The notes: generated by a model from the letters alone, not told the origin. Shown: positions 51,215 to 54,367, counted from the stretch's first letter. The stretch is DNA of 54,460 nucleotides from Mycobacterium phage prophiGD12-2 (MW584207.1); one strand, 5' to 3'. Program-made: numbers and translations.

Positions 51215-51643
51215 CTAGTTTGCGCGCGGATACCAGTCGGGAATTTGATCGGCCGGGCGGGGGTACTTCGCTAAGTCCTCGATGTAGGTCTCATTGGTCG
51301 GCTGCACAGTCCAATTGGGAAGCTCGTTGTAGTTGTAGTCGAAGGAGCATTTTCCATCTGGCTGGGCGGTCAAAGTCACGGAAAGCCAAGCGCCGTTACC
51401 TTGAGAGGCCATTAACTCCCGAAGTTCCTTGAACGCCCGGATCATGTCAATTGGAGACTTGACTATGTCGGTCTGGCCATCATCCATCGTTACTGCGACC
51501 TTCGACTCTGCGACAGACCCCGCCTTGCGGTACTCCACTGTCACCACCCGCCAGCCTGTCGGTGGAAGGGCGTCGAACAACGGCTTGACGACCTTGGTCT
51601 GCGCGTCCCCGAGCTGGACGAGGTGAGGGGGCTGGTCATTCAC
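51215..51643 (-). CDS. Putative immunity protein, paralog 2
   Basis: 142 aa, paralogous to 51655..52086 (shared ...AWLS.TL....G...F.YNY.E.P.W......YI.DL.KYPRPA..IPDWYP). GTG start. Confidence 0.55.
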   Translation of the reverse strand: MNDQPPHLVQLGDAQTKVVKPLFDALPPTGWRVVTVEYRKAGSVAESKVAVTMDDGQTDIVKSPIDMIRAFKELRELMASQGNGAWLSVTLTAQPDGKCSFDYNYNELPNWTVQPTNETYIEDLAKYPRPADQIPDWYPRAN

Positions 51644-51654
51644 AGGGCGTCGCC

Positions 51655-52086
51655 CTAGCCGTTAGAGACCGGATACCAATCCGGGATTGCCTCGGCCGGG
51701 CGGGGGTACTTCTGCAAATCTTTCACATAGACTTCGTCTAACACGTCTCCCAGCCATTTCGGGCGCTCATCGTAATTGAATGTGTAGTGATATTTTCCTG
51801 CTTTATTAATGTCCAAAGTCATCGACAGCCACGCCCCCTTGCCTAGTGTGGCCATTTGATCCCGAAGGTTCATAAGAGCGTCAATCAGCTTCGACGGTGG
51901 CGAAATAGGTTCTACGTTTCCGTCAGTCATCGTGCACCGCACCACGGCTTCCGCAATTGGACCGGCCTGGCGATACTCCATGTAGCAGGACTCCCACCCC
52001 TGCTCAGGTAGGTTGTAGTACAGCCACTTGGCTGCCTCTTCTTGCAGCTCACCTTGCTTGACGAGATAGGGAGTATTATCAGTCAT
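51655..52086 (-). CDS. Putative cognate immunity protein, paralog 1
   Basis: Starts 12 nt downstream of the toxin stop. SD GAGAGG. Confidence 0.55.
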   Translation of the reverse strand: MTDNTPYLVKQGELQEEAAKWLYYNLPEQGWESCYMEYRQAGPIAEAVVRCTMTDGNVEPISPPSKLIDALMNLRDQMATLGKGAWLSMTLDINKAGKYHYTFNYDERPKWLGDVLDEVYVKDLQKYPRPAEAIPDWYPVSNG

Positions 52087-52098
52087 CACGCCGCCTCT

Positions 52099-53901
52099 CT
52101 ATCCCTCGTTGTTGAAGTATCGAGTGCCAAAGAGCTTACCATCGACAAAGGTGTCAACGGCGTACCTGCTGGGCCGTAGGGAATCGCCTGGATATTCAAT
52201 ACTGACTTTCACATCAACCGCATGTCCGTCATTCAATAGAGACTTCCATTCGTTCTCTAATCCCGCGTATCCACCTAAATTCAGGCTGTCCCGCATTGCG
52301 GTTAAATTAATTGCTTCACCTGGGCCACCGAACTGCGTTCCAAAAATATGTCCGCCGTGGTCGCCGGGGAGCCGGTCACTGCCGCCAGCTATGCCCTGCT
52401 GGTATCCGTTCCGATCGTTCGGGTTGCCGATTTCCAGGGAGCCGTTCGCCTCCGTGGAGCGATGCAGTCCATCCGTTGTGTACTCAAATCGATCGTTGAC
52501 CGTGTAATGGGTGTTGGGTTGCGGGTTGTTCAGGTCGTGATTCCAAGCGCCGGTACCGCCAGATTCAGTGGCGATGTGGTTTAGCTCTGGAACACGGCTT
52601 GCGCCACCGTGATCACCGATGGTGCCTGAGTGCTCACCTGTGAACGGGCCTATCTCACCACTGCTATGGCCACCGCTGGGAGCGTCCACGTGGGGATGCG
52701 ATGACCCGTCGAAGAGATGTCCGCCAGGCAGGTCGCGGAGCATGCCGGGCGAGTCAGGGAGAGCGCCACGCGCGGCTGCGCTCTCTTCGACCCCGAGCCG
52801 ACCAAGCGCACCCTCCCCACCGAGCGGCGCTGTCCCCCCGATAATGGCGCCATCGACCGTGGTCTTACCGATGTTCTCGGGGATCTTCTCAGGGTGCTGG
52901 TAAGACGTGACGGCCTGATCGATCACGTTCTTGGCGTCCTCGGCCATCGTAGCACCAGGGAACAGTGTGCGTTCCAGCTGGTGCTCAAGGCCTTTCGCGC
53001 TGTTCGTCCATGACTCGGCGAACTTGTCGGCCCCGTTAAGCCCCGCCTTGCTTTTGACCTCATCGATCGTCCCGTCGATGCGATCGTTGGCGCCTTTAAG
53101 GAACTGTTTGGCCACGCCAGAGCCGAAACCGTCCTGCGGTTTGGGAGCGCCGGGCATCTTGTCGAGTGCCCCGACCGTCCCAGTGAGGCTGCCTGCCTTG
53201 CTGGGGTCGATGGTCAGCTTGTCGCCCGACCCCGGTGTCTTCGGGTACCACTCTTTGTAATTGGCTTGCGTATCGGCGCCCGCAGCGGCGGCGGCCTTGG
53301 TCGCCCCAGGATCGGCGTTCGGGTCGGGTGCGGCCAAGTGCTCCAAGCCAGCGACAACACCTCCGGGCTTGATAGCCGATCCAGGCATCGCCGGAAGGCC
53401 TTGGGCCACAGCACCAGACGGGTCCGGGAGTGTCTGGGCAGCTTTGACCGCTGCCTCAAGATCGGCGTTGGCGACACCCCCGGCAGCGCTGATCTGACGC
53501 AGCGTATTGGTCAGATAGTCCAGCTCGTTTTTGTCATACTTGCCGCTAGGCGGGGTGACCTCGCCAGTGTCGTAGTTGATCGTGAATTTGCCTTGGGCGG
53601 CGTCGTTTTCGATCTTCTTGAGTAGCTGTTGCACGCCCTCGAACTCATCGGCAGCGGCCCGGATCTTGGCCGCAGCGCTCTGCTGGGCCTGAGCGTGCCC
53701 GTCGAGATACTTGCCATGCGCATCCAGATCATGGTGGGCGGCGTCCCCAGAGACGCCTTTCCAGCCGTCTCCCATGATCGGCAGCCGCTCCACACCGCGC
53801 TTCATATCCCGATTCGCGCCCGCCATTCCATCCAGAGCGTCGGCTACATCGCGGAATGATTGGACCTTGCCACGCTTGATATCGGTCAGCGGCAACGACA
53901 T
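52099..53901 (-). CDS. WXG100-domain polymorphic toxin (EsxB-like N terminus, long Ala/Gly/Pro-rich linker, C-terminal toxin domain of unknown type)
   Basis: N-terminal IMGDGWKGVSGDAAHH W-x-G motif. The C-terminal roughly 160 aa contain DHGGHIFGTQFGGPGEAINL...N (HNH-like spacing). 600 aa. Confidence 0.7.
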   Translation of the reverse strand: MSLPLTDIKRGKVQSFRDVADALDGMAGANRDMKRGVERLPIMGDGWKGVSGDAAHHDLDAHGKYLDGHAQAQQSAAAKIRAAADEFEGVQQLLKKIENDAAQGKFTINYDTGEVTPPSGKYDKNELDYLTNTLRQISAAGGVANADLEAAVKAAQTLPDPSGAVAQGLPAMPGSAIKPGGVVAGLEHLAAPDPNADPGATKAAAAAGADTQANYKEWYPKTPGSGDKLTIDPSKAGSLTGTVGALDKMPGAPKPQDGFGSGVAKQFLKGANDRIDGTIDEVKSKAGLNGADKFAESWTNSAKGLEHQLERTLFPGATMAEDAKNVIDQAVTSYQHPEKIPENIGKTTVDGAIIGGTAPLGGEGALGRLGVEESAAARGALPDSPGMLRDLPGGHLFDGSSHPHVDAPSGGHSSGEIGPFTGEHSGTIGDHGGASRVPELNHIATESGGTGAWNHDLNNPQPNTHYTVNDRFEYTTDGLHRSTEANGSLEIGNPNDRNGYQQGIAGGSDRLPGDHGGHIFGTQFGGPGEAINLTAMRDSLNLGGYAGLENEWKSLLNDGHAVDVKVSIEYPGDSLRPSRYAVDTFVDGKLFGTRYFNNEG

Positions 53902-53906
53902 AAAGG

Positions 53907-54218
53907 CTACGCCTTAGCCTGCGGACGGCTGCCCAGAATATTGACTGCCGTCTGCTCTTCCATCCCGGCGAAGGCGTAGCCGATCTGATCGAATGCGTCT
54001 CGATAGTGGGTCGATTCATTTTCGACATGCCTGGAATGGCCCTGCCACTGCGTCGACTCACTGTCCAGCGCCGACGCGGCACCACCAACCCACCCCGACA
54101 TCGCCGCACTGATCAGCCCGTGGGCCTTGGTGTGTGCCGCGCGGTGCGCAGCCAGCAGCCGATCCATCTCATTGGCCGAACGGTGCAGCAACTCAGGACT
54201 GACTTGCAATGAACTCAC
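53907..54218 (-). CDS. WXG100 (EsxA-like) protein
   Basis: 103 aa. SGWVGGAA W-x-G motif at the helix-turn-helix centre. SD GAGGGGG 9 nt upstream of GTG 54218. Stop lies 5 nt before the toxin start. Confidence 0.7.
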   Translation of the reverse strand: MSSLQVSPELLHRSANEMDRLLAAHRAAHTKAHGLISAAMSGWVGGAASALDSESTQWQGHSRHVENESTHYRDAFDQIGYAFAGMEEQTAVNILGSRPQAKA

Positions 54219-54339
54219 AGCAACACCCCCTCGCGCTGATTCGCGCCCCTCCGGTCATTGCCGGATCGTATCGCCGCCAAGTTTGCCGCCGCAACGGCAC
54301 GGGCCGCGCAATCTTCTGACCAGCCCAAATCGACGCCGT

Positions 54340-54367
54340 GCGAATTAGTGTCCCTTTAGTGTCCCCT
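54340..54367. repeat. 28-bp element, copy 2, 17 bp inside the attR core
   Basis: Identical to 213-240. Confidence 0.6.

Follow-up and report, generated by a model that had tools for sequence, protein, structure and literature searches.

Predicted cognate and orphan immunity genes behind an EsaD-like nuclease toxin in a Mycobacterium abscessus-type prophage

Why should a prophage cassette with a single toxin gene carry two immunity genes behind it? The question is raised by four genes at one end of Mycobacterium phage prophiGD12-2 (MW584207.1), the 54,460-nt stretch of DNA that we analysed as a whole, that we refer to as the window, and on which all window positions are counted. Running leftward from the attachment site attR, these genes encode a small protein of 103 amino acids (aa), a 600-aa toxin, and two immunity proteins, here called imm1 and imm2 (Table 1). 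We consider it quite probable that they form a prophage-borne toxin-immunity cassette of the ESX (type VII)-secreted kind, known as PT-Imm (polymorphic toxin-immunity) or PEST (phage-encoded ESX-secreted toxin), in which imm1 is the cognate immunity gene and imm2 an orphan. The locus is an ordinary member of these known cassettes and not a new kind; what is new here is the status of its two immunity genes, imm1 as cognate and imm2 as orphan, and apart from that it is a routine addition to a family already catalogued.

Which immunity gene belongs to the toxin can be judged from the company that toxin ends keep. At nine loci, we set the final ~140 toxin residues beside the gene that comes first downstream, naming three types of toxin end that carry an Endonuclea_NS_2 (NS_2) domain: W (window-like), A (prophiGD03-1-like) and B (prophiGD05-1-like). 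Toxin ends and first downstream genes split into the same three clades (Pearson r = 0.87, 36 pairs). W-type ends that are 79, 73 and 65% identical to that of the window are followed by imm1-like genes of 67, 62 and 60% identity, A-type ends have a gp83-like gene next, and B-type ends a gp92-like gene. This co-variation by clade points to imm1 as the likely cognate immunity gene of the W-type nuclease.

imm2 keeps other company. With the immunity partners of A-type toxins it shares 89-91% identity; the toxin end of the window, by comparison, reaches only 62% identity to the A type. In nucleotide alignments, A-type loci cover imm2 exactly and no part of imm1, and those of the W type run through imm1 and end there. 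Two W-type loci (L009 and L012) have one immunity gene each, and a third (L015), without an imm2-like gene, has an unrelated 188-aa gene after its immunity gene; at the same attB as the window, locus L004 combines a 99%-identical secretion domain with a toxin end of the B type, followed by just one immunity gene, also of the B type. Compared with cognate A-type genes, imm2 has a ratio of nonsynonymous to synonymous substitution rates (dN/dS) of 0.06-0.08; compared with the orphan copy in locus L020, the ratio is 0.17. With no A-type toxin in the window, A-type genes as its closest relatives and the mark of purifying selection, imm2 is, by these comparisons, an orphan immunity gene. A toxin fragment hidden between imm1 and imm2 was considered and rejected, as the gap there is just 11 nt.

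Locus-by-locus identity and DNA alignments resolve the cassette into a mosaic of four segments: a partner gene and toxin N-terminal domain like those of L004 and L020, a toxin trunk common to the whole family, a W-type C-terminal domain with imm1, and an A-type imm2. The comparison with L020, whose cassette is near-identical, adds a further observation on the last of these. Between the two (imm2 at window 51215-51643 and L020 6259-6687), amino acid identity is 90.8% for imm2, 98.6% for imm1 and 100% for the C-terminal domain, with dS of 0.26 for imm2 vs 0.12 and 0.13 for imm1 and the C-terminal domain; this greater divergence of imm2 suggests separate recombination histories of the orphan gene.

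The genes themselves are real and not chance open reading frames (ORFs), because identical or near-identical copies occur in M. abscessus assemblies and their dN/dS is well below 1; the exact toxin, for example, is found in GCA_017174975.1 (L003). The four ORFs lie where the first-pass annotation, made from the sequence without database searches, had put them, tightly linked on the minus strand and leading away from the attachment site, with intergenic gaps of 5, 9 and 11 nt from the attR side leftward. Its placing of the immunity genes 12 nt after the toxin stop is correct with the ATG at 52086 as the start of imm1, and becomes 9 nt with the longer 144-aa ORF; the ATG, the second codon of that ORF, is the start used by an independent gene caller for the identical locus in L003 (143 aa).

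What would this toxin do? Its residues 462-583 match Pfam PF13930, Endonuclea_NS_2, at E = 4.7e-27 (95.2 bits vs a cutoff of 27), and its C-terminus matches the crystallised nuclease of Staphylococcus aureus EsaD/EssD (8guo_B) at E = 3.8e-16, with GGHIF aligned with GGHLI. The H-x-G-G...N...N pattern seen in the first reading of the sequence corresponds to His518, Asn532 and Asn541, which align with His528, Asn542 and Asn551 of EsaD, where H528 is catalytic and N551 coordinates magnesium (PMC9616950). The resemblance to HNH and colicin-DNase folds proposed at the same time is sound at the level of the superfamily (His-Me finger) and fails at that of the family, which is Endonuclea_NS_2. The C-terminus is a His-Me-finger nuclease domain homologous to EsaD, and the protein a predicted DNA-cutting toxin.

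Both downstream genes belong to the EsaG/YezG (DUF600) family, as judged from Pfam, from a family profile run against solved structures, and from the predicted fold of imm1. imm2 is recognised by the Pfam YezG-like model (24.7 bits vs a cutoff of 21.7). For imm1, a single-sequence search of solved structures gave no meaningful match, and EsaG was reached only via the family profile and the predicted fold. A word-index search for imm1 homologues found only 6 proteins, and an exhaustive HMMER search with a small alignment was used instead, which returned 1,063 cluster representatives at E <= 1e-3. Among the single-domain members of this immunity family, 27 of 66 match YezG-like individually (E < 1e-3), and the family profile finds BH3703 (DUF600) at E = 2e-5 and EsaG at E = 8.8e-5 among the solved structures. 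The AlphaFold model of imm1 has a predicted local distance difference test (pLDDT) score of 93.6, and its Foldseek search gave six matches at E < 1e-3, all of them EsaG or BH3703 (template modelling (TM) score 0.53-0.63), with EsaG 8guo_A at the top (E = 1.4e-6, TM 0.61). The two immunity-like genes announced by the first-pass annotation are thereby borne out as an immunity family, with EsaG/YezG in place of the SUKH and Imm families it had in mind. imm1 and imm2 are 44% identical to one another, and have in common a central block and a conserved nucleotide block at the 3' end.

Two further observations concern this family. Many of its representatives P0127-P0276 hold 2-8 tandem copies of the domain (P0127, for instance, has 8 copies in 2169 aa), and could be tandem arrays fused in gene calling or else true multi-domain proteins. 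In prophiGD05-1 (L002, MW584169; 2572-3009 and 3020-3481), gp92, labelled 'hypothetical protein', is EsaG/YezG-like, lies directly after the NS_2 toxin and is 51% identical to imm1, while gp91, which bears the label 'polymorphic toxin immunity protein', shows neither a relationship to it nor any match in Pfam; the label has either been misplaced, or gp91 is an orphan from a different immunity family.

How could such a protein silence the nuclease? In S. aureus, EsaG splits EsaD into two fragments that sandwich it, an N-terminal one (beta1-3) and a C-terminal one (alphaB and beta6-8), and the catalytic finger of EsaD in this complex is disordered and contact-free (PMC9616950). We aligned 37 C-terminal-domain sequences and took fragment identities over nine non-redundant mycobacterial types: pairwise identity averages 0.61 in each of the two segments that correspond to the EsaG-contact fragments, vs 0.82 in the catalytic finger (Mann-Whitney p = 2.4e-4), as expected if specificity is set at EsaG-like interfaces. 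The pattern is consistent with an EsaG-like inhibition, in which the beta-sheet of the nuclease is probably split by the immunity protein.

At the other end of the toxin, the question is one of export. The 103-aa protein passes the Pfam WXG100 model (28.0 bits vs a gathering cutoff of 27.3) and matches TIGR03930 at E = 3e-7; it also shows a weaker similarity to the PE family, and its 78%-identical homologue in L006 scores 30.6 bits for WXG100 and E = 3e-4 for PE. A single-sequence search of solved structures with the 103-aa protein gave no meaningful match. In the toxin, an AlphaFold model of the N-terminal domain, built with 29 family members, has a helix at residues 13-38, the WxG motif in a turn at 47-49, and helices at 50-105 and 124-156, all with pLDDT of 80-89 and followed by a disordered linker. 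Its best Foldseek matches are PPE4, PPE15, EspB and PPE41 (PE-PPE-EspG complexes), with a probability of 0.77-1.0 and a target TM of ~0.53; WXG100 reaches 14-17 bits here vs the cutoff of 27.3, the domain is ~160 aa long with a third helix, and PPE matches better. After helix 2 comes Y122-D-K-N-E126, in which Tyr is replaced by Phe in some homologues, and among the Pfam matches of the toxin at E <= 1 there is no LXG family.

Over the nine loci, partner and toxin N-terminal domain rise and fall in identity together (96/99, 78/67, 48/44, 21/24 and so on), as expected of an interacting pair, and the 103-aa protein is presumed to be the secretion partner of this domain. The first-pass annotation had spoken of an EsxA-like WXG100 protein next to a toxin with an EsxB-like N-terminus, and had staked this on a WXG100 fold in both. 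That condition did not refute it, the 103-aa protein being above the Pfam cutoff and the toxin N-terminus, below threshold, being modelled as a WxG helical hairpin; the likeness to EsxA and to an EsxB-type WXG100 domain of ~100 aa gives way to a pair that, from the models, looks PE/PPE-like. PEST cassettes with a single partner have been modelled as PE25/PPE41-like heterodimers (PMC10654092), and our model of the toxin N-terminus agrees. Membership of PEST3 is ruled out by the single-partner architecture, and the PEST1 and PEST2 references, prophiGD43A-6 and prophiGD05-2, are absent from the tblastn matches to the toxin N-terminal domain.

Between the two functional ends lies the part of the toxin that varies least. 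After a linker with pLDDT below 50 (residues 163-215), the trunk (about residues 220-435, window 52597-53241) is at least 90% conserved among toxins with different N- and C-terminal domains, and its DNA is 84-99% identical to all loci compared (sliding-window nucleotide identity), yet no Pfam family matches it. The full toxin as query gave 140 homologues that share the trunk, every one from the M. abscessus-chelonae group or from M. camsae, and their C-terminal domains are of the NS_2, GH-E, Tox-REase-5, HNH, TNT or other kinds, representing at least six Pfam toxin domains (PF13930, PF14410, PF15648, PF12639, PF14021 and PF15644). The swapping of the C-terminal domain among many unrelated toxin folds on one trunk is the signature of secreted polymorphic toxins, and the trunk is probably the upstream substrate for recombination. 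The boundary of the C-terminal domain, taken from the drop in sliding-window identity, lies at about residues 430-450; a breakpoint at residue ~540, indicated by blastn end-points, was rejected as an artefact of extension through the conserved catalytic core. The trunk also contains a second GGHLF motif.

Taken together, we propose the following course of events. In a lysogen, the small protein and the toxin's N-terminal domain would pair into a PE/PPE-like bundle, which would guide the toxin into an ESX system; judging from the analogous toxin EatA of M. abscessus, this would most likely be ESX-4. In the cytoplasm of the producer, imm1 would hold the nuclease domain inactive, probably as EsaG does, wedged between the two fragments (N- and C-terminal) of the nuclease with the catalytic finger unfolded. 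Once exported, the nuclease would degrade the DNA of mycobacteria nearby that are without a matching immunity protein. As for the second immunity gene, a module of W-type C-terminal domain and imm1 probably replaced an A-type toxin end via recombination in the trunk, leaving imm2 over. imm2 would then have been retained because A-type toxins are common in the population (A-type toxin P0014 occurs on dozens of contigs), guarding the lysogen against those of other M. abscessus strains.

Several points weigh against this reading. Expression, secretion, DNase activity, neutralisation and cross-protection are, for this locus, predictions from homology and comparative genomics. A sigma-70 consensus scan found no promoter upstream of the cassette, a result of little weight given that such a scan covers mycobacterial promoters poorly. 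In the secretion pair, the 103-aa protein has no canonical YxxxD/E motif, the Pfam matches of the toxin N-terminus to PPE (E = 1.4e-3) and WXG100 (E = 6.3e-3) are both below threshold, and its Foldseek matches have weak E-values of 0.05-0.2, a common outcome with helical bundles. With 21.0 bits for YezG-like, imm1 stays 0.7 under the cutoff. The 'finger loop', the trigger of EsaD deformation by EsaG, falls short by 5 residues in the W type and by 2 in A and B, and details of the inhibition may therefore differ from EsaD-EsaG. Lastly, imm2 has always been found together with imm1, as would be expected if both were needed.

Could both immunity proteins, then, be required against the toxin of the window, either as a hetero-oligomer or with one for each contact fragment, making imm2 a second cognate gene? 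The exact imm2 protein occurs on 22 contigs, with imm1 directly before it in the two contexts shown; in another prophage setting, a toxin of 97% identity is likewise accompanied by the two immunity genes; and heterotetramers of EsaD-EsaG exist in solution (PMC9616950). Against these stand the other W-type toxins (79, 73 and 65% C-terminal identity), which have one EsaG-like gene downstream, and the high identity (89-91%) of imm2 to what is the sole immunity gene of A-type toxins. A C-terminal domain of hybrid W/A make-up, which might call for two immunity proteins, was rejected on alignment, since both of its contact fragments are W-type. On balance we hold a joint requirement to be unlikely. 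It is somewhat harder still to see imm2 as a non-functional relic of past recombination that brings no benefit: its position and the mosaic structure do suit a leftover of module replacement, and between the window and L020 its dN is 0.044 vs 0.006 for imm1, but its frame is intact, its dN/dS is low against both the A-type genes and the other orphan copy, and it is conserved across those 22 contigs.

The remaining alternatives concern the target of the toxin. That the nuclease is a virulence factor acting in or on eukaryotic cells, as TNT/CpnT does, and not on competing bacteria, seems improbable to us. Roles in in-vivo growth and virulence were suggested when the cassettes were originally described (PMC8092301), and pathogenicity was among the possibilities left open in 2023 (PMC10654092); on the other side, the homologous EsaD-EsaG and YeeF-YezG act between bacteria (PMC9616950), ESX-4-dependent killing between mycobacteria has been shown for the analogous Eat locus (PMC13444075), and an orphan immunity gene under purifying selection is useful only if a non-self toxin enters the bacterial cytoplasm. 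Least credible, and in our estimate very improbable, is an unsecreted module that acts within the cell, either in abortive infection against phages or as a toxin-antitoxin pair for prophage addiction. Viral defence has been named as an open possibility (PMC10654092), and the cassette does lie in a region of lysogenically expressed accessory genes, near a strong match to the SoFic defence gene (see below). PADLOC, however, has no model that matches the toxin or imm1, the WXG100 partner and PPE-like N-terminal domain are conserved and co-vary across loci in a manner that makes sense only for export, and the exchange of unrelated C-terminal folds on one trunk again speaks for a secreted polymorphic toxin.

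Where does an ESX-exported nuclease with a cognate and an orphan immunity gene stand among known systems? PT-Imm cassettes beside att sites were described in 2021 by Dedrick et al., including an Endo-NS2 variant in prophiGD03-1, and their lysogenic expression is supported by RNA-seq (PMC8092301). They were renamed PEST in 2023 in mSystems, in a study in which two members were found to be toxic, and their immunity effective, in M. smegmatis, and which noted recombination within the cassettes and the co-distribution of Imm and TOX domains (PMC10654092). The first-pass annotation had recognised the locus as an ESX/WXG100-type polymorphic toxin-immunity cassette of the M. abscessus prophage kind, and rightly so: its arrangement matches the literature (PMC8092301, PMC10654092), and it has an annotated relative in prophiGD03-1 gp83-85, labelled as immunity, toxin ('endonuclease_NS_2 domain and WXG motif') and WXG protein. 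Like other PT-Imm/PEST members, it lies inside attR, reads leftward in the order WXG protein-toxin-immunity, and has a WxG N-terminus, the shared trunk and a swappable C-terminal domain. Compared with prophiGD03-1, the nearest member, the trunk is 91% identical to gp84 and imm2 90% identical to gp83, whereas the secretion module (partner and toxin residues 1-166) shows no relation, or no more than 23% identity, to gp85 and gp84, the nuclease belongs to another specificity type (62% identical), and there are two EsaG-like genes in the window vs one. Among deposited phage records, none has an imm1-type (W-type) gene of more than 51% identity or an N-terminal domain of more than 46% identity to that of the window, PHROGs gave zero matches for any of the four cassette proteins, and in the literature searched we found neither orphan immunity genes in these cassettes nor an explicit link to EsaG/YezG.

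With EsaD-EsaG of S. aureus and YeeF-YezG of B. subtilis, both nuclease toxins of type VII secretion system b (T7SSb) with DUF600 immunity, the window shares a PF13930 toxin that keeps the catalytic His and the magnesium-binding Asn, the immunity family and its fold, an immunity gene directly downstream, and tandem non-cognate paralogues. In S. aureus, tandem non-cognate esaG genes recombine through conserved blocks (PMC9484751); the conserved nucleotide blocks in the immunity paralogues of the window could support recombination in the same way, and here too variation falls in the EsaG-sandwiching fragments. There are also differences: the secretion module of the window is of the mycobacterial type VII secretion system a (T7SSa) type (WXG100/PE-like plus PPE-like) and not LXG, EsaE or Lap; identity of the immunity proteins to EsaG and BH3703 is only 16-18%, and the finger loop is shorter than that of EsaD; and the element is prophage-borne, with a two-gene array compared to up to twelve esaG copies in S. 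aureus. An orphan left by a displaced module has a parallel in contact-dependent inhibition (CDI; cdiA-CT/cdiI) and rearrangement hotspot (Rhs) systems, where a new module of toxin tip and immunity gene is recombined into a conserved upstream region and the old immunity gene stays downstream. CDI and Rhs orphan immunity genes usually keep a fragment of the toxin tip, whereas the window retains the immunity gene alone, 11 nt after imm1.

A further comparison is with the M. abscessus Eat locus (EatA, TapA1/A2 and EatI), for which ESX-4-dependent secretion and inter-mycobacterial killing have been shown (Benedict et al. 2026, PMC13444075). In both loci, one or more genes for small helical partners go with a toxin that begins in a helical bundle and with an immunity gene downstream. 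The Eat toxin, however, is a GH183 arabinanase that acts on the cell wall and is countered by a secreted lipoprotein, and its locus has two partners; the window has one partner, a nuclease predicted to act in the cytoplasm and an EsaG-like immunity that is cytoplasmic. Nuclease payloads were among the commonest in a survey of 946 strains (PMC13444075).

The setting of the cassette is that of a complete integrated prophage of the M. abscessus type. The ends of the window are defined by a 76-nt direct repeat and a tRNA-Ala gene: attL (1-76) and attR are 99% identical, and the att core is the 3' part of a tRNA-Ala(GGC) gene, of which a full copy lies at the same junction in a host contig (L003, 5404-5479). 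The att repeat and the start of the first cassette gene 167 bp inside attR agree with the position beside attR given by the first-pass annotation. A terminator-like hairpin with a T-run within the att core (54396-54421, minus strand), directly 3' of the tRNA-Ala end, is probably the tRNA gene's own terminator, duplicated through integration. At the opposite end, a tyrosine integrase gene (263-1585) adjoins attL, and a 35-nt repeat with two copies of TTAGTGTCCC occurs both by attL (206-240) and by attR (54333-54367); these repeats are probably the arm-type binding sites of the integrase, a prediction from sequence. The backbone DNA is 94-96% identical to that of the M. abscessus prophages prophiGD05-1 and prophiGD17-1, and homology to prophiGD05-1 ends at 51194 and picks up again at 54327; the coordinates of the cassette therefore mark a discrete swapped module almost exactly.

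Table 1. Features of the cassette and its attR border in the window (prophiGD12-2, MW584207.1).
Feature	Position	Strand	Basis and remarks
attR	54385-54460	.	76-nt core, 99% identical to attL 1-76; 3' part of tRNA-Ala(GGC)
Non-coding region upstream of the cassette	54219-54384	-	Includes the repeat with two copies of TTAGTGTCCC at 54333-54367
Small WXG100/PE-like partner, 103 aa	53907-54218	-	Pfam WXG100; WxG at residues 43-45
Toxin gene, 600 aa	52099-53901	-	N-terminal domain, trunk and C-terminal nuclease
Toxin residues 1-160, PPE-like helical secretion domain	53422-53901	-	AlphaFold model, Foldseek, sub-threshold Pfam
Toxin residues 161-461, linker and trunk	52519-53421	-	Ala/Pro/Gly-rich disordered linker, conserved trunk
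Toxin residues 462-600 and stop, Endonuclea_NS_2 (EsaD/YeeF-like), W type	52099-52518	-	Pfam PF13930, EsaD structure (PDB)
Predicted catalytic His518	52348-52350	-	Aligns with EsaD H528
Predicted magnesium-binding Asn541	52279-52281	-	Aligns with EsaD N551
imm1, EsaG/YezG (DUF600) family, 144 aa	51655-52089	-	Family profile, predicted fold; alternative ATG 52086
imm2, EsaG/YezG family, A type, 142 aa	51215-51643	-	Pfam YezG-like; identity to A-type partners

The genes further to the left are of interest in their own right. Directly downstream of imm2, on the same strand, lies a gene for a membrane protein with DUF2510 and DUF4352 (50401-51165, phrog_806), which bears a faint likeness to Sie-like superinfection-exclusion proteins (E = 0.05) and is kept in both prophiGD05-1 (gp90) and prophiGD17-1. 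Two genes left of the cassette, on the minus strand, a 401-aa Fic-domain protein (48962-50167) matches SoFic in PADLOC at E = 4.3e-45 and in NCBIfam at 5e-16, under the cutoff of the latter model; it is probably a prophage-borne anti-phage defence gene in the same leftward block of accessory genes. Beyond it, a 408-aa protein (47115-48341, minus strand) shows a weak Met-zincin (HExxH-type) metalloprotease signature over residues 341-388 (E ~3e-4), below the cutoffs.

What could this cassette mean for M. abscessus? For the role of such cassettes, virulence, competition and phage defence have all been under discussion (PMC10654092), and an experimental demonstration of toxin warfare between mycobacteria came only in 2026, with an enzyme that acts on the cell wall (PMC13444075). 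With a nuclease, one cognate and one orphan immunity gene, the locus offers a clean test case for a payload that would act in the cytoplasm, and as the W, A and B specificity types occur naturally on near-identical backbones, cross-immunity and strain exclusion are directly testable. The spare immunity gene, under purifying selection within a prophage cassette, may mean that EsaD-like nucleases really are exchanged between M. abscessus strains via ESX, with prophages holding small 'immunity collections' akin to the esaG arrays of S. aureus and with toxin unfolding by EsaG-like proteins conserved across T7SSa and T7SSb; to our minds, the chances of this being so or not are evenly balanced. If true, the unfolding mechanism of EsaG would span the Actinobacteria (T7SSa) and the Firmicutes (T7SSb), and prophage content would decide which clinical strains of M. 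abscessus exclude one another.

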